Below, one piece after another: positions 16,662-62,277 of a stretch of DNA of 64,000 nt. Position 1 is the stretch's first letter. Every line of letters begins with the position of its first letter. The stretch comes from Escherichia phage vB_EcoA_4HA11. The stretch lies in the sequence record MN445184; one strand, given 5' to 3'. The position numbers and the translations under genes are program-made. The notes beneath the pieces were generated by a model. The model searched no databases. It was not told the origin of the DNA and saw only the letters and a program-made list of their open reading frames with translations.

Positions 16662-17008
16662 AAAAGCCACGCATCACAGGACATCAACTCTGCGTCCTTT
16701 TAGGAATGTTGAATTTTGAAAAAGGTGAAGCTAGACGCCTTTGTCATTGGTATTTCAATCCCAAATCTTGGACGAACGATAAAGGGAAAACGGTTTGGAC
16801 TTTTCATGCGCCACCGATATCTGGCGGGTTTCGTTCTGTAAAGGGTGATCCATGGGATACGCGTTCAGGTCAATCCTTGTTGTCTAAAGGTCTGATAGAA
16901 CCTGCGTTTACAATGGTTCATGACAACTCTGAAGAGTATAAGCATTGGCCGAAGTCTGAAGTAACATTCTATAGACTTACAGACCTCGGTAAAGCATGTA
17001 CTGAATAA
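16658..17008 (+). CDS. hypothetical protein
   Basis: 116-aa ORF. Confidence 0.4.
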   Translation: MKKPRITGHQLCVLLGMLNFEKGEARRLCHWYFNPKSWTNDKGKTVWTFHAPPISGGFRSVKGDPWDTRSGQSLLSKGLIEPAFTMVHDNSEEYKHWPKSEVTFYRLTDLGKACTE

Positions 17009-17071
17009 TATTTTAGGTTATTGAAGAAAGGGGAAGGTATACTTCCCCTTAATTTATTGGGAGAGACAAAC

Positions 17072-17817: not shown

Positions 17818-18328
17818 ACCACGTATGATGTTCGCCCATATGCGATCAGCTGCAGCATATGGTGTAACCAGTTATGCTCGGCGTCTGCAAGTCGGTTGTG
17901 TTATCGTAAACCCTGAAACTGATCAGCCTGTGGCTATCGGATGGAACGGAACGCCTCCTGGTATGCCGAATGTTTGTGAGATGGAACAACACGGGCAAAT
18001 TGTTACAAACCCGTGTGTCATTCATGCGGAGGAAAATGCTCTAATGCGTATCCCCGAAAATGCAGATGATTTCACAGGGTTGGTTATGTTTGTGACACAT
18101 AGCCCATGCCCTGATTGCACTCAGAAGATCATCGACAACGGCAAGATCGATAAAGTATATTATCAAGAGCCATATCGTATCATGGATGGAATCAAAAGAT
18201 TGATGAACGCCGGAATTGAAGTTTACCGGATGGTGGGCGATATGGCGATCCTTAAACACGTTTTCGACGATCAAGGCGAAGTCGGATACGAACAAATCTT
18301 ATCCAACCCAGACAAAGTAAGGAATTAA
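17810..18328 (+). CDS. cd: dCMP deaminase
   Basis: zinc-binding deaminase motifs HAEENAL and PCPDC. Confidence 0.8.
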   Translation: MIKPRMMFAHMRSAAAYGVTSYARRLQVGCVIVNPETDQPVAIGWNGTPPGMPNVCEMEQHGQIVTNPCVIHAEENALMRIPENADDFTGLVMFVTHSPCPDCTQKIIDNGKIDKVYYQEPYRIMDGIKRLMNAGIEVYRMVGDMAILKHVFDDQGEVGYEQILSNPDKVRN

Positions 18329-25566: not shown

Positions 25567-25643
25567 AATAACACCTGGTAATGATTTCTTGGAATTATAC
25601 TGCTACTGACTTTATTGAATGGGGTTCCGAAGAACCCCAATTT

Positions 25644-27071: not shown

Positions 27072-27124
27072 GTGTCTCCAGGGTTATTCGTCATGCTATT
27101 ATAACCCTAGAGACTTCAATAGAT

Positions 27125-27484: not shown

Positions 27485-27531
27485 AGTCTGATCCTTCTGT
27501 AAAGTTCCCATGCATTATATGGGTAAATTGT

Positions 27532-27951
27532 TTATTGAAAATCGTGATGGCCGTATGCGCCCTCTTCGGCTTCATCGCGTTCAGCTTCTCTTATCTCAGC
27601 CTTTGAAGCCCCAAGGACTCTGAGCTGGCGAGAACTGAACAGAGGATAGTCCATTCCGTCGAATCGGATATGACCACAACCCGCCTTATTGAGTTTGTCC
27701 ATCTGCTCTTCAGTGAGGCCAGCAGAAAGGCGGACAGACTCTTTCCGCAAATCAGAAAGGATTGCCTGCGCCGATTTAGGTCGCTTGCCATTCAGGGACA
27801 GGTCTGTTGGGGTATCTTTACGACACCCAAAGGTCTTCCAGTAGGCGGCGCAAGACTTAGAACAGAACAACCCCCAGCCACGGTCAATGTCGGCCTGGCG
27901 AACCATCTTCTTGTTCGGACAGCATTTGCATTGGATTTCAACTTTTGACAT
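27532..27951 (-). CDS. zinc-ribbon protein
   Basis: internal start MSKVEIQCKCCPNK; CxC..C..C N-terminus. Confidence 0.4.
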   Translation of the reverse strand: MSKVEIQCKCCPNKKMVRQADIDRGWGLFCSKSCAAYWKTFGCRKDTPTDLSLNGKRPKSAQAILSDLRKESVRLSAGLTEEQMDKLNKAGCGHIRFDGMDYPLFSSRQLRVLGASKAEIREAERDEAEEGAYGHHDFQ

Positions 27952-28821: not shown

Positions 28822-30011
28822 AATTTCCTCAGTTTTGCCCTTGTAATCTGAGTTTGTTTAATACCTTTGAATTCGGTCAATTCTTTGACACGACCTCGAA
28901 TGATCATATCGCCTTCTAAAAACTCGGTTTCCATATAGGAAGTCTTCCATGTAATGGTATTGCCTTCCTTGGTTTTGAAAGTATACAGATACGTGTCACC
29001 ATAATCAGATGAATACAGGAAAATCCTTGCTTCAAATTTGACCTGTGCTTCTAACATTTCACCAACTTCACCAACCCAATTTGATACAGTGCGCGTTTGG
29101 CGGGGGGTGTGGATATAATCATAATACTTTGCTGCTCCCCAACGAACTGTTGTTGAGTCTTTAACAAGGTGATAACCAGGTTCGCACATACGTTTCAGCC
29201 GGACGTTGAAATCGTTATTTTCAGACAACGATGCGATGAAAAGCATCATATGATACATCTCTGATTGAGCATCTTCACGGGCTTTAACAGCCTTGTTATA
29301 GAATATATCAATGTCAGAACCTTTCTCCGGACGAGTACCGCTAGAGATATGACCAAGAACTCGACCAAAATCATCACTTTTAATGCTCAGGCCGGACAGC
29401 AAAACCTGAAAGCATTTACACAAATATCCTTCCGTGTCAACATAATCTGGTTCATTAACCCGATAAATTCCTTCTGGGTCATCTTCATCGGGGGTAAACA
29501 TTTCGTGAATAGACATGTAATAAGACATAACCGCATCAAGGGATTTCTGATGCGGGACATAATGATGCATACAGCTGCTACCCACGAGCATCTGTGCGCC
29601 AGATTGTTCGTTACGAACGACATATGTGTTATGACGACGCACAGATTTGTTGCAATGCTCGCACCAAGATACGTTTTCAGCTTCAAATCTTTGAACGAAA
29701 TTTGGGTGGATGTCATCTGACAGTTTATTCAGAATGACTTTTGGATACTGGTGGTTGAATTGTCCAATGATACTCCACCCACCATAAGAAACGGGGCGGT
29801 CGATGCCTTCACCAGTTAGAGTACAATCTTGCCACCAACGATAAAATTTTTCGCCAGTGATAGAATCGCGGTGTTGTGTTTTGTATGGTTCACTGAACTC
29901 AACAAGAGGGAACTCGAGTTTCAGGCGGTTTGCCGTTCTTTCAAGTTTGGCAAGACGTTCCTTGACACGACCAATGTTATCAATTGGGATGCTGAAGGTC
30001 TTGGCTTTCAT
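28818..30011 (-). CDS. hypothetical protein with Cys/His cluster
   Basis: 397 aa; WCEHCNKSVRRHN..SSCMHHYVPH. Confidence 0.5.
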   Translation of the reverse strand: MKAKTFSIPIDNIGRVKERLAKLERTANRLKLEFPLVEFSEPYKTQHRDSITGEKFYRWWQDCTLTGEGIDRPVSYGGWSIIGQFNHQYPKVILNKLSDDIHPNFVQRFEAENVSWCEHCNKSVRRHNTYVVRNEQSGAQMLVGSSCMHHYVPHQKSLDAVMSYYMSIHEMFTPDEDDPEGIYRVNEPDYVDTEGYLCKCFQVLLSGLSIKSDDFGRVLGHISSGTRPEKGSDIDIFYNKAVKAREDAQSEMYHMMLFIASLSENNDFNVRLKRMCEPGYHLVKDSTTVRWGAAKYYDYIHTPRQTRTVSNWVGEVGEMLEAQVKFEARIFLYSSDYGDTYLYTFKTKEGNTITWKTSYMETEFLEGDMIIRGRVKELTEFKGIKQTQITRAKLRKL

Positions 30012-30054
30012 TTTTGCCTCTCATGATGTAGTGAAACTTTTCAATGTAGGTTAA

Positions 30055-30100
30055 ATGATAGCCGCAAGTTTTATTGAAGTAAAGTTTTATTGAAGTAAAG
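30055..30100 (-). promoter_or_regulatory. early-type promoter with duplicated -35 box (2x CTTTAC) and TATCAT -10
   Basis: minus strand reads CTTTACTTCAATAAAA twice, then -10 about 18 nt downstream. Confidence 0.4.
30067..30098. repeat. perfect 16-bp tandem repeat x2 (AGTTTTATTGAAGTAA)
   Basis: direct inspection; lies between a hairpin (30097-30120) and the -10 element. Confidence 0.8.
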
Positions 30101-30128
30101 CCCAACAAATGTTGGGCTTTAACCGATA

Positions 30129-30431
30129 TTATTCATCCGTGCGATCAGGCGCGGCGTTAGGATACAGCGACTCATAAAGATCTTGGTATTTGGCGCTGGT
30201 CTCGATGGTCTTGGTATAAGTTCCACCAGCGCGATCGGTAACGACTTTGCGCAGATCAACGGCTTTGATGCCTGTTTCTTTTGCCAATTCAGCCAGGGCT
30301 TCGGTAACAAAGGTCTGTTCAGACTTGATACGGATCTGGGCGGCACGACAATTTTCTAAAGTCTGCATCATCTTTTGACGCAGTTTTGGATCAGAAGGGA
30401 GTTGATAAAAACCAATTTGTTCAACTGACAT
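30129..30431 (-). CDS. hypothetical protein
   Basis: 100-aa ORF; hairpin 30097-30120 downstream as terminator. Confidence 0.45.
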   Translation of the reverse strand: MSVEQIGFYQLPSDPKLRQKMMQTLENCRAAQIRIKSEQTFVTEALAELAKETGIKAVDLRKVVTDRAGGTYTKTIETSAKYQDLYESLYPNAAPDRTDE

Positions 30432-30776: not shown

Positions 30777-30839
30777 GATGTGCTCCTGGGTTAATATTCA
30801 GATCATAGAGATTATACCCTATGATCACCATTATTGAAG

Positions 30840-32192
30840 TTAACCGAAATTCCAATTATTCACGGTCTCGGCTTTCTTGACATCATTTACGTCGCCTGTT
30901 TTGTTTAAGTCATGTTTGATATGAACATTCTCAACATAACGGGCTTCCTCTTCTGTCAGGTCTCGCTTGACTTCATTCCAATCCAAGTCAAACAATATCT
31001 GTTTATCTTGATCCATACCGAACAAGAACGATTTGAGTTTCTGTTTATTGGCATAACGGTTTTTCAAGATAGACGCTCGGGCTTTCTTAACAGCCGCCAG
31101 TTCATCAGGGGCATAGAACGCCATGATGAAGTCTGCAACCTTCGGAATACCGATAGCATCTGCCAGGTCGCTAATATCACCATCAGTCGCCGATTGTTTT
31201 TCACGGTTAAATTGCATACCTGTCCATACAGGGCAATCAAATTCAAATCCAAGCGCACGGAATTCACGCGCCACCGACGTATAATACACGTTGGTGTTCT
31301 GCATTAAATGGGCAGGAAGGCGAGAAGACGCTGATTCACCCAAGTAGTCTATAATAATGACGTCCGGCGTAATTCCCGTGGATGTCGCGTAATCAAGGAT
31401 ATCGCGGCGATACAGTCCTGTATGCCCAGCGCCTGAAGGATATTCCTTGATAACAATATCACCCTTCATGGAACCGTCTTGACGGGTTCGCAACTTTTGT
31501 ATCGTAGCGACATATTCATGTCGTGAGAGCTTCTCTAAGGACTCGAAGTCCCTGCGCATCATACGGGCATCAAGGCGGTGACGCCAGACGTTCTCAGCCA
31601 CTTCTAGGGTAAATACGAATACGTTCAACCCTTGCTCGGAGTAACCAGCAGCCAAATCAATCAGAGTTGTTGTCTTACCCGCATTAATTGCACCCGTCAC
31701 GATGTTCAGCGTTTTCTTACCAACACCACCACGAGTCGCTTTGTTGAATATCTCTACAGCGAAAGGAATCTTCGCTTCATTAGAGTTCATGTGGTCGTAT
31801 TGTTGTTCAGCCATTTCCCAATAGATATGGCCAAGATAAGAATCAAAACTTATCGCCAACGCCTCTTGTAGGAGAGTTGGAATCGTGTTCATCTCATCTT
31901 TACGTTTCTCATCACCATAGATGTTGACGGCGTGTTTGATCGCATTATGAACAGCTTTCTGCCGCGCCCAACTTTCTGTTTCTTTTACAAGCCATTCCTG
32001 ATGGAATGTGTTGTCATTGATATTCTCAAGAGCAGAAATAGCTTGTTCAAATACGTGTTCGTTGAGCGAAGTCTTTTCCAGCATAATAGACAACGCTTCA
32101 ACCGAAGGACGAGCATTATATTCGCAAGTGTAATGGTCAATGAGACCGAATATAATTTTCTCGCCTTCGTTATCGAAATAATCGGCTTTCAA
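30840..32192 (-). CDS. DnaB-like replicative helicase gp41, main body (N-terminus displaced by tandem duplication)
   Basis: Walker A GAINAGKTT; ORF begins at a non-ATG codon inside the duplicated segment. Confidence 0.8.
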   Translation of the reverse strand: MKADYFDNEGEKIIFGLIDHYTCEYNARPSVEALSIMLEKTSLNEHVFEQAISALENINDNTFHQEWLVKETESWARQKAVHNAIKHAVNIYGDEKRKDEMNTIPTLLQEALAISFDSYLGHIYWEMAEQQYDHMNSNEAKIPFAVEIFNKATRGGVGKKTLNIVTGAINAGKTTTLIDLAAGYSEQGLNVFVFTLEVAENVWRHRLDARMMRRDFESLEKLSRHEYVATIQKLRTRQDGSMKGDIVIKEYPSGAGHTGLYRRDILDYATSTGITPDVIIIDYLGESASSRLPAHLMQNTNVYYTSVAREFRALGFEFDCPVWTGMQFNREKQSATDGDISDLADAIGIPKVADFIMAFYAPDELAAVKKARASILKNRYANKQKLKSFLFGMDQDKQILFDLDWNEVKRDLTEEEARYVENVHIKHDLNKTGDVNDVKKAETVNNWNFG

Positions 32193-32201
32193 ATACGGCT
32201 G
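31885..32201. repeat. 317-bp direct repeat, copy 1 (inside helicase gene)
   Basis: identical to 32202..32518 by inspection. Confidence 0.8.
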
Positions 32202-32587
32202 GTGTTCATCTCATCTTTACGTTTCTCATCACCATAGATGTTGACGGCGTGTTTGATCGCATTATGAACAGCTTTCTGCCGCGCCCAACTTTCTGTTTCT
32301 TTTACAAGCCATTCCTGATGGAATGTGTTGTCATTGATATTCTCAAGAGCAGAAATAGCTTGTTCAAATACGTGTTCGTTGAGCGAAGTCTTTTCCAGCA
32401 TAATAGACAACGCTTCAACCGAAGGACGAGCATTATATTCGCAAGTGTAATGGTCAATGAGACCGAATATAATTTTCTCGCCTTCGTTATCGAAATAATC
32501 GGCTTTCAAATACGGCTGGATCTTTCTTTGATATTCTTCGTTATAGATTAATTGGGAAAGCACGACAGATTCGAGTAACATTGGCAA
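32189..32587 (-). pseudogene. gp41 helicase N-terminal fragment (true start plus first copy of duplicated segment, ends 3 codons after junction)
   Basis: residues KADYFDN..KDEMNT identical to start of main ORF, then SRI-stop. Confidence 0.7.
32202..32518. repeat. 317-bp direct repeat, copy 2 (perfect tandem)
   Basis: identical to 31885..32201; period not a multiple of 3. Confidence 0.8.
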
Positions 32588-37317: not shown

Positions 37318-37377
37318 TAAACAAAAGGAGCTGCTATTATAGCAGCCCCTTCATCTATTGAATGCTTCTGAATTAAA

Positions 37378-38337
37378 TTACGCAGCAGCTTTCGCTTCGG
37401 CCAACGCCTGTGGCAACCATTCATTGATTGCTTTCACCAGAGATTCGGCATCAGTTTCTTTGATTTTCTGGCGTTTGGTGAATGATTTACCATTCACATA
37501 CAGACTGAACCCCCAGCCGCCGGAAACGATCGGCGCCAGATCAACATAAGTATTGGTGCGGGCGTGTGGATTGGCTTCATCTGCCAGTTCGGTAACAGGG
37601 AACTGGAACCAGCGCATATCCGGATTCACATAGCTCAAATAAACCCCAGGCACAACCCCCGATTCAACCGCAGCCAGGATAGGACCATAATTGGATGCGC
37701 GAGCCGCTTCAACCATTTCTTCACGCTTGTTATGACGACGCTTGCGTTCTTCGGTAGAAGATGCAGGGCGCATTTCAGAAGATTTCTTGGCCAGAACCGC
37801 CTTCGCGTTCGCTAAAGCCTGATCATCCTTCGGATTTTCAACGTCGGCGATTGCTTCAGCAACGGTTGTGCCCAGCATACGACGGCGAACTTCTTCAGCA
37901 CGGGCTTGCGCTTCTTCGTCAAGAACTTCTTCGCCTTCAACTACCAGGGAAATGGAACCGTCTTTGTTGACTTCAAGAGAACCGTCTTCGACGGTCTGGG
38001 AATTTTGATCACCGACAGGTTGCCCAACCGTTTCTTCGGCGTCAATCACCGGATTTGATTCACCGTCGCCCTGTTTAACCCCCGCATCTTCGGTCGGTTT
38101 AACTTTTTCGGCTTCAGCGCGGTCAAGAGCTTCGAGAGTCTCTTCTTTCTCTTCCTGGCTCAGACCTTCAATGAGTTCAAAGCCGTTGGCTGACTGGAGG
38201 ACGCCTTCCATCATACGGCGTAACGTGACGTTGCCGATGATAAGGTCTGCACCTTTGATTTCTGCTTGAAGATCAGCAGCGGTTTTACCATCAATTTCAA
38301 ATTTCAGGCCGGACTCGATATGAAGAATATAGGACAT
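37378..38337 (-). CDS. acidic hypothetical protein
   Basis: 319 aa with long Glu/Asp-rich low-complexity region. Confidence 0.5.
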   Translation of the reverse strand: MSYILHIESGLKFEIDGKTAADLQAEIKGADLIIGNVTLRRMMEGVLQSANGFELIEGLSQEEKEETLEALDRAEAEKVKPTEDAGVKQGDGESNPVIDAEETVGQPVGDQNSQTVEDGSLEVNKDGSISLVVEGEEVLDEEAQARAEEVRRRMLGTTVAEAIADVENPKDDQALANAKAVLAKKSSEMRPASSTEERKRRHNKREEMVEAARASNYGPILAAVESGVVPGVYLSYVNPDMRWFQFPVTELADEANPHARTNTYVDLAPIVSGGWGFSLYVNGKSFTKRQKIKETDAESLVKAINEWLPQALAEAKAAA

Positions 38338-38404
38338 AATAAAAACCCTTTTGTGTAGTAACCTTCTTTGGCAGTCTAATGTTCAACTGTGCGTCTGGAA
38401 CATT

Positions 38405-38433
38405 AATATACTGCCTTTTTAGAAGATGTAAAC
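38405..38433 (-). promoter_or_regulatory. early-type promoter GTTTAC-N17-TATATT
   Basis: minus strand reads GGTTTACATCTTCTAAAAAGGCAGTATATTAATG about 60 nt upstream of start 38337. Confidence 0.5.
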
Positions 38434-38510
38434 CACTTTTTATTGAAAAGTTGGTTAACACTTCTGTGTTAGACAACGGAACGCTGTATCAGCGCGGACT
38501 GGCGTGAATA

Positions 38511-42455: not shown

Positions 42456-42484
42456 ATTATACTGCGTTTTGCTATTGAGTTAAC
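42456..42484 (-). promoter_or_regulatory. early-type promoter GTTAAC-N17-TATAAT upstream of gp32 with hairpin-containing 5' leader
   Basis: minus strand GTTAACTCAATAGCAAAACGCAGTATAAT; leader has GCCCC-UUCG-GGGC stem-loop. Confidence 0.4.
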
Positions 42485-49357: not shown

Positions 49358-49612
49358 TTATGCTCCTATTACGTGCTGTTTGGCTTGTTCATAGGCTGTG
49401 CGGAGTTCAAGATAAGAATCTGCCAACAACGGTGATTTGTCGTTTTTCCGATTCATGATTATTTGGTGGTTAACGACAGCACGGCGTAATCTGAGTTCTG
49501 CCACCCAGAATGCTTTTTGTTTTGCGTGTCCTGGACGGGCGCGTAGGTCGTGATAATGCATAGAAGCATGATATATTTCAGAGTTGGTCATGATATAGTT
49601 CCTGCTATTCAA
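49358..49612 (-). CDS. hypothetical protein
   Basis: 84-aa ORF. Confidence 0.4.
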   Translation of the reverse strand: MNSRNYIMTNSEIYHASMHYHDLRARPGHAKQKAFWVAELRLRRAVVNHQIIMNRKNDKSPLLADSYLELRTAYEQAKQHVIGA

Positions 49613-49642
49613 TTTGTGGCGTTTGCCAATAAATTACTGGGA

Positions 49643-49691
49643 AGTATAGGCGGAAAGGTTTCAAAAGTAAAGCCCCTCATTGAGGGGCTTT
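49643..49691 (-). promoter_or_regulatory. terminator-promoter cassette: hairpin AAAGCCCCTCATTGAGGGGCTTT overlapping -35 CTTTAC, then TATACT -10
   Basis: minus strand GGGGCTTTACTTTTGAAACCTTTCCGCCTATACT. Confidence 0.45.
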
Positions 49692-55466: not shown

Positions 55467-55516
55467 GTCTCATTCTCCTACCAAAACTTTGAAAGGGGGA
55501 GGTTTCCCCCTTGCGG

Positions 55517-56005
55517 TTAAGCCAGTTTGTTCACCAGAGTTTCTACTGCGTCGGCGCTCAGTTTACCCATTTTGACATACTGGGATTTCGCTTCACCGCC
55601 AGCGGCTTTCACGATATCGCTGTTGTCATAACCCTTTTTCGGGAATACCATCACGGAGAAGGTTCCGTTGTTCAGCGGGTTCAGCTGAATGCGACCTTTA
55701 CCGACTACGATGGTGCCGTAAGTTTCGGTGTTCGCTTCGACAACGTGGATGTCATGGCCCAGGTCTTTCAGCATGCCAACCTTGTCAGCAGTCTTGGCAA
55801 CCACGGCTTTGTCTACGACAACCTGCTCTACCAGGGTGAAGCCGTTGGTCGCTTTCACTTTGCCGTTCAGCAGATTCATGAAGGAAGTTTTGCCACCAGT
55901 GAAGCCAGCTGCCTGAGCGATGCGGAACATTTCAACTTTTGCAACTTCGGTGTTCAGTTCAAAAGAGATGGTGCCGTTGGTGATCAGAGTTTTGGTAGTA
56001 GCCAT
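55517..56005 (-). CDS. hypothetical protein, likely abundant early protein
   Basis: ATG 56005 after GAGGAA; near-consensus promoter and leader hairpin upstream. Confidence 0.5.
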   Translation of the reverse strand: MATTKTLITNGTISFELNTEVAKVEMFRIAQAAGFTGGKTSFMNLLNGKVKATNGFTLVEQVVVDKAVVAKTADKVGMLKDLGHDIHVVEANTETYGTIVVGKGRIQLNPLNNGTFSVMVFPKKGYDNSDIVKAAGGEAKSQYVKMGKLSADAVETLVNKLA

Positions 56006-56082
56006 GATGTAATTCCTCATAATGTAGTTGGGTCGTTTCACTTTTCATTCGGCGGGGTGTTGTGTACCGCCCTATGTGAACT

Positions 56083-56112
56083 ATAATAGTGCATGATTAT
56101 TGAAGAGTAAAG
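56083..56112 (-). promoter_or_regulatory. early-type promoter CTTTAC-N18-TATTAT
   Basis: minus strand CTTTACTCTTCAATAATCATGCACTATTAT; GC hairpin (about 56051-56072) in leader. Confidence 0.45.
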
Positions 56113-56204
56113 TCTTTTTCAATAAATTTTTAAATTATTTTTGAAGTATTTTAAAAGGCCTCGTAGAATGAGGCCTAGAGAGAAGGTTTTTGAGTTAAAA
56201 AGTT

Positions 56205-58092: not shown

Positions 58093-58155
58093 TGTTATCT
58101 GTATCCTATTGATGACGAATGGGCAAAATTATAACCTGATGATGATCCTATTGAG

Positions 58156-61819: not shown

Positions 61820-61897
61820 TGTAATTCTCCTGATTATAAAATCGGTGCGGTTTCCCTTAATTAGCGAAAAGAAAGGGATGCTAACACCCCTTTATTC

Positions 61898-62173
61898 TTA
61901 ACGACGGAACGGGCGAGACGCGTTTTGGCGATTGTTGTAATTCTTATCAAATTGTGCCAACGCCGCCGGACTCCATTCGCGTTCCCATTCTTTGTCAACT
62001 TCGGTTTGGTTGGCAGGTTCAATCATTTCAACAGTAGGAAAATCGCGTTTCATAATTTCACGCAATTGTTCAGAAGGGGCGGTTTGGGCGTGGACTAATT
62101 CTTCACCGTCGTAAACTTTGGCCATCAACCATTTGCTGCCGTAACGGATATATGCGTCGAGGATGATTTTCAT
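61898..62173 (-). CDS. hypothetical protein
   Basis: internal ATG 62173 after AGGAA. Confidence 0.4.
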   Translation of the reverse strand: MKIILDAYIRYGSKWLMAKVYDGEELVHAQTAPSEQLREIMKRDFPTVEMIEPANQTEVDKEWEREWSPAALAQFDKNYNNRQNASRPFRR

Positions 62174-62221
62174 AATGTAGTTCCTGCTTTTCAAGTTGGT
62201 GTCGTACTGCTTATGTTTAGA

Positions 62222-62266
62222 ATTATACGTGGGTTATTGAAGAAGTAAAGGGGCTTTTGCCCCTTT
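62222..62266 (-). promoter_or_regulatory. terminator-promoter cassette: hairpin AAGGGGC-TTTT-GCCCCTT overlapping -35 TTTACT, then TATAAT
   Basis: minus strand CCCCTTTACTTCTTCAATAACCCACGTATAAT. Confidence 0.5.
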
Positions 62267-62277
62267 TATTGAATATT

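Follow-up and report, generated by a model that had tools for sequence, protein, structure and literature searches.

Minus-strand cassettes with putative promoters

The DNA analysed here, a stretch of 64,000 nucleotides (nt) from Escherichia phage vB_EcoA_4HA11 (record MN445184; hereafter the window), carries on its minus strand a family of cassettes in which a hairpin, a promoter-like pair of hexamers and a leader stand ahead of an open reading frame (ORF). The window is 97-98.5% identical to Salmonella Kuttervirus genomes such as SF02, Det7 and ST-W77 and is colinear with Escherichia coli phage CBA120; hence we assign it to the Vi1-like myoviruses (Ackermannviridae), only distant kin of T4. 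From 24.5 to 64 kb the genes lie almost throughout on the minus strand and comprise those of replication, recombination and nucleotide metabolism together with small ORFs of unknown function.

A first-pass annotation had listed six places where a GC-rich hairpin runs into a CTTTAC or GTTTAC -35 box followed by a TATAAT-like -10, and all six were found on the minus strand where it had placed them. We scanned both strands for (C/G)TTTAC-N17/18-TAnnnT with a -10 hexamer matching at no fewer than five of six positions (the class A pattern). This gave six minus-strand matches and none on the plus strand, against a mean of 0.10 and a maximum of 2 in 300 dinucleotide-preserving shuffles, which bears out a non-random, strand-specific family of sigma-70-type promoter-like sites. 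Five of the six (at 62250, 56112, 49672, 38433 and 30084) are intergenic and lie 45-85 nt 5' of a minus-strand start codon. We refer to them as the 62k, 56k, 49k, 38k and 30k sites. When the five paralogous cassettes were lined up by hand with the -35 as anchor, all had TTTAC(T/A), a hexamer-to-hexamer spacer of 16-17 bp and a -10 with five or six matches of six. The hexamers, all on the minus strand, are CTTTAC (62250-62245) and TATAAT (62227-62222) at 62k, CTTTAC (56112-56107) and TATTAT (56088-56083) at 56k, CTTTAC (49672-49667) and TATACT (49648-49643) at 49k, GTTTAC (38433-38428) and TATATT (38410-38405) at 38k, and CTTTAC (30084-30079) and TATCAT (30060-30055) at 30k, where the CTTTAC given is the one predicted to function.

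The sixth match (CTTTAC at 16994, TAGAAT at 16971; 16966-17057, minus) is antisense to plus-strand genes. It lies about 30 nt 3' of a hairpin and a copy of the 8-mer TTCAATAA, and CBA120 keeps a counterpart at 17848; the match may be fortuitous or may mark an antisense promoter.

Architecture of the individual cassettes

The 62k cassette (62171..62273, minus) runs from its hairpin (62266-62247) through the -35, which overlaps the 3' arm by 4 nt, the -10 and an unstructured leader ending in AGGAACTACATTATG to the ATG at 62173-62171. The 8-mer TTCAATAA, which contains the TCAATA box treated below, occurs upstream (62273-62266) and again in the spacer (62241-62234). The cassette heads a single-gene unit (61872..62173, minus) made up of a 91-amino-acid (aa) ORF (61898-62173) and its own terminator hairpin (61893-61872).

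In the 56k cassette (56003..56176, minus) about 45 nt separate the hairpin (56176-56156) from the -35 downstream of it, and the AT-rich stretch between them contains an inverted box, TTATTGAA (TTCAATAA on the plus strand, 56118-56125); a direct TTCAATAA follows at 56104-56097. Read on the minus strand, 56125-56097 is an inverted repeat, TTATTGAA-N13-TTCAATAA, that flanks the -35 hexamer in the manner of an operator; its CBA120 counterpart is at 29700-29665 of locus L010. The 5' leader has a hairpin (GGGCGG..CCGCC) and its start unit is duplicated (ACTACATTATG / AGGAATTACATCATG), with the ATG at 56005. This cassette too heads a single-gene unit (55493..56005, minus), in which a 162-aa ORF (55517-56005) is followed by the hairpin AAGGGGGAAACCTCCCCCTT (55512-55493).

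The hairpin of the 49k cassette (49589..49691, minus) spans 49691-49669 and overlaps the -35; the leader ends in AGGAACTATATCATG with the ATG at 49591, and the genes that follow are, in order, a 77-aa ORF found among the genera compared only in Kuttervirus, a conserved 153-aa ORF and a 112-aa ORF. The -35 and spacer of this site (CTTTACTTTTGAAAC; 49672-49655, minus) may resemble enterobacterial OmpR-binding sites, a likeness that we take as a lead only. In the 38k cassette (38335..38455, minus) an A/U hairpin (38455-38432) carries TTCAATAA in its loop (38447-38440), the ATG is at 38337, and the 319-aa first product heads the block of nucleotide-metabolism, UvsX and gp41 genes. The 30k cassette (30009..30120, minus) has a hairpin (30120-30097) followed by a 16-nt tandem duplication (CTTTACTTCAATAAAA twice); the hairpin enters the CTTTAC of the first copy (30100-30095) and the correctly spaced -35 is that of the second. 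Its leader (ATTGAAAAG..ACTACATCATG) is followed by a new Shine-Dalgarno (SD) sequence and ATG (30011), and its first gene is a 397-aa ORF. The first genes of all five cassettes lack a known function, in agreement with the first-pass expectation that the putative early units would mostly encode such proteins.

Folding energies were -13.6 kcal/mol (z -4.7) for the 62k hairpin, -16.6 kcal/mol (z -4.2) for that of 49k and -16.9 kcal/mol (z -5.5) for that of 30k; the 56k stem also counts as stable, and 38k has only the weak A/U hairpin (z -2.1). The proposal that the 3' arm runs into the -35 thus holds strictly at 62k and 49k, but not at 56k and 38k, and at 30k the arm meets the duplicate -35. The tails of the hairpins are T-rich and interrupted (TTTACTTCTT). 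In a terminator pattern scan whose range excluded 30k, the hairpins of 62k, 49k and 56k were not among the minus-strand terminators, and that of 62k was called on the plus strand only.

The leaders share, among the paralogues and in the orthologues of five genera, the sequence (C/T)TGAAnAG-N5/6-ACTAYAYYATG (62194-62171, 56040-56003, 49612-49589 and 30044-30022, all minus). They end in a combined SD and start module, AGGAAnTACATYATG; at 56k and 30k another SD and ATG come after a degenerate copy of the start unit. Four of the five minus-strand occurrences of ACTAYAYYATG are in cassettes. A riboregulator reading of the conserved leader was set aside in view of its lack of structure (z -0.8 to +1.5). 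As the leaders are unstructured and an Rfam search of the whole window returned no family, we read the leader as a putative open translation-initiation module.

Conservation across genera

Five genera were compared: Kuttervirus, Limestonevirus, Taipeivirus, Agtrevirus and Miltonvirus. The five cassettes recur at orthologous loci, and on the coding strand only, in LIMEstone1 (Limestonevirus), 0507-KN2-1 (Taipeivirus), phiSboM-AG3 (Agtrevirus; AG3 below) and phiMAM1 (Miltonvirus). In the orthologue alignments TTTAC and positions T1, A2 and T6 of the -10 are invariant amid diverging flanks and spacers, as would be expected if sigma-70 makes contact there. Only the 30k orthologue of phiMAM1 departs from this, with 23 nt between CTTTAC and the -10. 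In the whole CBA120 genome the cassettes number about nine, every one of them minus-strand (30522, 38560, 49802, 56242, 62098, 76215, 78233, 97491 and 144083, that at 76215 being weaker), and those at 62098, 97491 and 144083 have near-identical TTTACTTCTTCAATAA cores. In phiMAM1 the sequence TTATTGA stands immediately 5' of four cassettes.

The 49k and 30k hairpins are kept by compensatory substitutions. The 49k stem GCCCCTC/GAGGGGC becomes GGCCGGT/ACCGGCC in phiMAM1 by four double changes and still abuts CTTTAC, and the 30k stem GCCCAAC/GTTGGGC becomes GCCCAGT/ACTGGGC in LIMEstone1 and AG3 by two.

Gene replacement at cassette edges

The edges of the cassettes are homology breakpoints. At the 62k locus hardly any differences separate the window from the Kuttervirus phage bering through the cassette as far as ATGA, and the same holds directly 3' of the terminator; these flanks are about 99% identical. 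Between these flanks (window 61872-62173; bering locus L011 1658-2100; left junction at the cassette ATG) the two phages carry unrelated ORFs, of 123 aa in bering and 91 aa in the window (BLASTP E = 2.4), and different terminator stems. LIMEstone1 has a third ORF type in this slot, and 0507-KN2-1 has the ORF type of the window followed by an ORF whose N-terminus looks, by eye, like that of LIMEstone1. Among 60 relatives taken as a spread sample, similarity ends in 30 at query positions 160-162, just past the start codon at 158-160. The additional Kuttervirus 77-aa gene at 49k sits between the cassette and the conserved 153-aa gene, and in phage KE31 similarity to the 30k region starts at the first base of the hairpin. 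The gene that follows the cassette is kept in every genus at 56k, 38k and 30k.

A TCAATA box and promoter-like sites lacking a -35

The 8-mer TTCAATAA occurs 20 times in the window, about 4 occurrences being expected. The motif noticed in the first pass is thus real, but its placement in the spacer, said there to be frequent, was seen at 62k, 56k and 30k only. Among the class A sites the box also lies upstream at 38k and 62k, and it forms an inverted pair around the -35 at 56k and at CBA120 144083. Its presence in or beside class A spacers hints at an additional factor. A literature search on the TTCAATAA motif returned nothing relevant, and a reading of the box as an IHF site or UP element, considered informally, found no support in the sequences.

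The same box defines a second set of sites (class B), which have TCAATA(A/G), a gap of 10-14 nt and a perfect TATAAT, and no -35. Six occur on the minus strand against 0.06 expected. The site before gp32, which had been put forward as a variant of the cassettes, belongs here instead (42456..42478; TCAATAG 42478-42472, N10, TATAAT 42461-42456). The others are TCAATAG-N14-TATAAT at 58128..58154, ahead of a 205-aa ORF and the gp61 primase operon; TCAATAG-N13-TATAAT at 37336..37361 (Porf067 of AG3), where TATAAT is the loop of a hairpin (GGGGCTGC/GCAGCTCC) that is followed by TTTT and resembles a terminator of the 38k unit too; TCAATAA-N14-TATAAT at 30811..30837, after gp41, with TATAAT in the loop of the stem GATCATAG/CTATGATC; TCAATAA-N12-TATAAT at 27514..27538, where the box supplies, with its TAA, the stop codon of the preceding ORF; and, after the hairpin GGGGTTCttcgGAACCCC, TCAATAA-N12-TATAAT at 25594..25618. 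A class B-like site ahead of the gp30 ligase gene (27098..27121, minus) has an inverted box, TATTGAAG, at N10 from TATAAT (27103-27098). Ten perfect TATAATs are intergenic in the minus-strand block; six have the box at N10-14, one has the inverted box (27103, before ligase), one is the -10 of class A site 62k, and that before NrdA (53421-53416) has a near-box. None of ten TATAATs within genes has the box. Genes 3' of class B sites include gp32, ligase, the primase operon, the thymidylate operon and NrdA, and orthologues of the sites are present in LIMEstone1, 0507-KN2-1 and phiMAM1. The -10 often lies in a hairpin loop, the stem of which varies by site and genus. A late-promoter reading of class B was rejected, as replication genes lie downstream and the late genes of AG3 carry TATAAATA-type sites.

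Directly 5' of the 30k cassette and 3' of a class B site, 30129-30431 (minus) encodes a 100-aa protein of PHROG 639 ('transcriptional regulator'). Searches of Pfam, NCBIfam and PDB sequences with this protein and its neighbours gave no informative match, and these searches named no candidate for binding the box.

Elsewhere in the block the gp41 primase-helicase gene holds a perfect 300-nt direct repeat (31885-32184 and 32202-32501; spacing 317 nt), which breaks it into ORFs 30840-32192 and 32189-32587, where CBA120 has one gene of 1425 nt. The repeat is either an assembly artefact or a genuine duplication.

Discussion

That the cassettes form a real family, far beyond chance, is solid, and it is also largely expected biology. 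We put at roughly 70% the probability that they are composite modules of intrinsic terminator, sigma-70-type early promoter and leader, akin to the PeSL cassettes of T4-type phages, which double as gene-swap junctions; promoter activity, terminator activity, sigma-70 dependence and early timing are all inferred here from sequence. In such a module the intrinsic-terminator hairpin would end the upstream transcript, and its U-rich tail (CUUUACUU...) would serve in the DNA as a -35 (TTTACT/A) read by unmodified host sigma-70 RNA polymerase. Together with a TAnnnT -10 located 16-17 bp 3' of the -35, this would allow transcription to restart about 7 nt after the -10 and to yield a leader of 50-70 nt, unstructured and ending in AGGAAnTACATYATG. 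Each cassette would thereby insulate and re-initiate one early transcription unit, the 62k and 56k units being predicted single genes with their own terminators. As the module of about 100 nt recurs about nine times per genome, it could act as a homology arm, at the edges of which downstream ORFs would be gained, lost and swapped in the way known from PeSL elements.

Several observations weigh against this picture. The -35 agrees with TTGACA at only four of six positions, and just one of the five -10s is a perfect match. Strict overlap of hairpin and -35 is confined to two of five sites, and the U-tracts are broken (UUUACUU). A plain sigma-70 promoter would not normally have a conserved TCAATA box, in one orientation or the other, within or next to its spacer. 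Vi1-like DNA contains hypermodified thymidines (PMC5889632), which may bear on sigma-70 recognition of these T-rich elements. The LIMEstone1 GenBank record calls the 62k, 56k and 30k orthologues 'putative middle promoter', and the literature searched contained no 5'-end, start-site, termination, RNA-seq or timing data for Ackermannviridae.

These labels and the box would suit promoters of middle rather than early mode, at which a phage factor reading TCAATA(A/G) or a GCTTTA-like sequence is required, as are MotA and AsiA in T4, and host polymerase alone is inactive. The box is kept in or near the spacer across genera (in phiMAM1 56k it is shifted by 3 nt with its sequence unchanged), the same box stands at N10-14 from the perfect TATAATs of the -35-less class B sites before replication genes, and in the 30k orthologue of phiMAM1, with its CTTTAC 23 nt from the -10, the box is at N12. 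We nevertheless consider a middle mode unlikely. The 17-18 bp between CTTTAC and the -10 suit a -35 and not a MotA box, (a/t)(a/t)(a/t)TGCTTtA, which lies at 12 +/- 1 bp (PMC2988021). A GCTTTA-like sequence occurs at only two class A sites and ends 18-19 bp from the -10, and a MotA-box reading of GCTTTAC was ruled out on that spacing (PMC2988021). The direct-orientation box is missing from the 49k and 38k spacers, and where a class A site has the box its distance to the -10 ranges from 6 to 10 nt. Homologues of MotA, AsiA, Alt and ModA were not found in Vi1-like phages by Kutter et al. (PMC3184105), and the LIMEstone labels are pattern matches to T4 consensus sequences only.

The strong hairpins with T-rich tails at three sites, and the forty intergenic terminators reported for AG3, which indicate that terminators abound in this phage group, would also be accounted for if the sites were mere intrinsic terminators or intergenic hairpins and the hexamers a by-product of T-rich tails and AT-rich intergenic DNA. 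This we regard as very improbable, as the promoter part is retained without an adjacent GC hairpin at 56k, 38k, phiMAM1 62k and CBA120 144083 and is therefore not a by-product of terminator tails; T1, A2 and T6 of the -10 are kept at 17-18 nt from TTTAC in five genera despite spacer divergence, and other terminators of the window, such as 61893-61872, 55512-55493 and 58554-58531, lack a downstream -10 at that spacing. Hardly more probable is an element serving mainly recombination or mobility, by homing or site-specific exchange of small ORFs, with the transcription signals secondary. It would fit the homology breaks exactly at cassette edges, the three unrelated ORF types in the 62k slot, the homing endonuclease gene just 5' of the LIMEstone1 30k cassette and the 16-nt slippage duplication at 30k. 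However, the breakpoints are equally explained by selection, in that a viable swap must keep promoter and translation start, plus homologous recombination of the ordinary kind between repeats; the cassettes have no consistent link to a recombinase or endonuclease, and three of them (56k, 38k and 30k) precede a gene conserved in all genera. The composite terminator-promoter module stays our preferred explanation of the cassettes.

Of the points left over, the TCAATA box and the -35-less class B sites are the most interesting. It is a tentative idea, to which we give well under even odds, that TCAATA(A/G) is the site of a phage-encoded or phage-recruited factor that defines an Ackermannviridae middle-mode regulon without MotA or AsiA. 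If so, the box would stand in for the -35 at genes of replication and nucleotide metabolism (gp32, ligase, primase operon, thymidylate operon, NrdA) when placed 10-14 nt 5' of a perfect TATAAT, itself often in the loop of a covarying hairpin. In the early cassettes, where it lies within or around the -35 and at times forms an inverted pair (TTATTGAA...TTCAATAA), the box would modulate early transcription or switch it off. One factor would then be read out in two ways, at the early cassettes and at the middle promoters.

Comparison with known systems

Kuttervirus and its Vi1-like relatives are in wide use against Salmonella, E. coli O157, Klebsiella and Dickeya, and their early gene regulation is undescribed. 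The cassette consensus would provide testable start sites for the first transcription units, would single out about nine small genes without known function, probably for host takeover, and would explain where relatives swap accessory genes. The single-gene units recall morons, reportedly defined by Juhala and Hendrix in 2000 in temperate lambdoid phages as autonomous promoter-gene-terminator units expressed from the prophage; the phage here is virulent and its expression is presumed to be early and lytic.

The gain over earlier work is incremental, because the kind of element and several single sites had already been predicted. The CBA120 paper reports that informatics failed to identify early promoters (PMC3184105). 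Table S2 of the AG3 paper lists Porf069, Porf100, Porf138 and Porf237 as early promoters (PMC3121705), of which Porf069 is the 38k site, Porf100 overlaps 56k and Porf138 is a paralogue with TTttacttcttcaataactcacgTATAAT. The LIMEstone1 annotation (HE600015, PMC3296691) has a middle promoter plus terminator at 62k, 56k and 30k, an early promoter at 38k and a terminator only at 49k; the four sites marked as middle or early promoters overlap or adjoin terminators. In these annotations the same sites are listed singly, with inconsistent class labels and some misregistered hexamers, and the papers neither group them into a family nor recognize the leader module, the swap junctions and the class B box.

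The early promoters of T4 (Hinton 2010, PMC2988021) resemble the class A sites in combining a -10 with a TTTAC-type -35, in having AT-rich upstream DNA at some copies and in preceding small prereplicative-strand genes of unknown function. The sites here differ in lacking a TGn extended -10, in their weaker -10s and in a phage group for which no Alt or ModA homologues are reported (PMC3184105). The middle promoters of T4, which depend on MotA and AsiA, and PmSL of phage nt-1 are closer to class B; on paper class B works likewise, with a conserved box about 12 nt 5' of an excellent -10 in place of the -35 and a position before replication and nucleotide-metabolism genes. The class B box differs in its unrelated sequence (TCAATAA vs TGCTTtA), in its looser spacing of 10-14 nt and in a -10 often placed in a hairpin loop, and MotA and AsiA are again the homologues not reported for Vi1-like phages (PMC3184105).

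The nearest relatives are the PeSL cassettes of T4-type phages (Arbiol et al. 2010, PMC2839356; Comeau et al. 2014, PMC4122927), in which a stem-loop terminator adjoins or is fused to a sigma-70-like early promoter, as the putative counterparts do here. PeSLs have A3-4G3-loop-C3T3-4 stems just 5' of TTTACW-N17-TAYWAT and extend through the SD to the ATG (PMC4122927). The class A hexamers match this consensus, in line with the first-pass comparison to the early promoter class of T4-like phages; the phage itself is only a distant relative of T4, and early timing is inferred. Stem type, the -35/-10 consensus and the extent through the SD to the start codon are all alike, as are the many copies per genome, the adjacent small ORFs of unknown function and the occurrence at indel and replacement junctions between close relatives. 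At 62k and 49k hairpin and promoter are fused, at 30k the fusion is to the duplicate -35, and at 56k the two stand apart. Experiments have demonstrated that PeSLs act as promoters and terminators and that recombination between them yields mini-circles; for the cassettes here, promoter and terminator activity is predicted from sequence. They further differ in belonging to Ackermannviridae, in being fewer (about nine copies), in the extra TCAATA(A/G) box and in that several copies lie between core genes with the downstream gene conserved. On our reading, the PeSL idea would thus extend beyond the T4 group.

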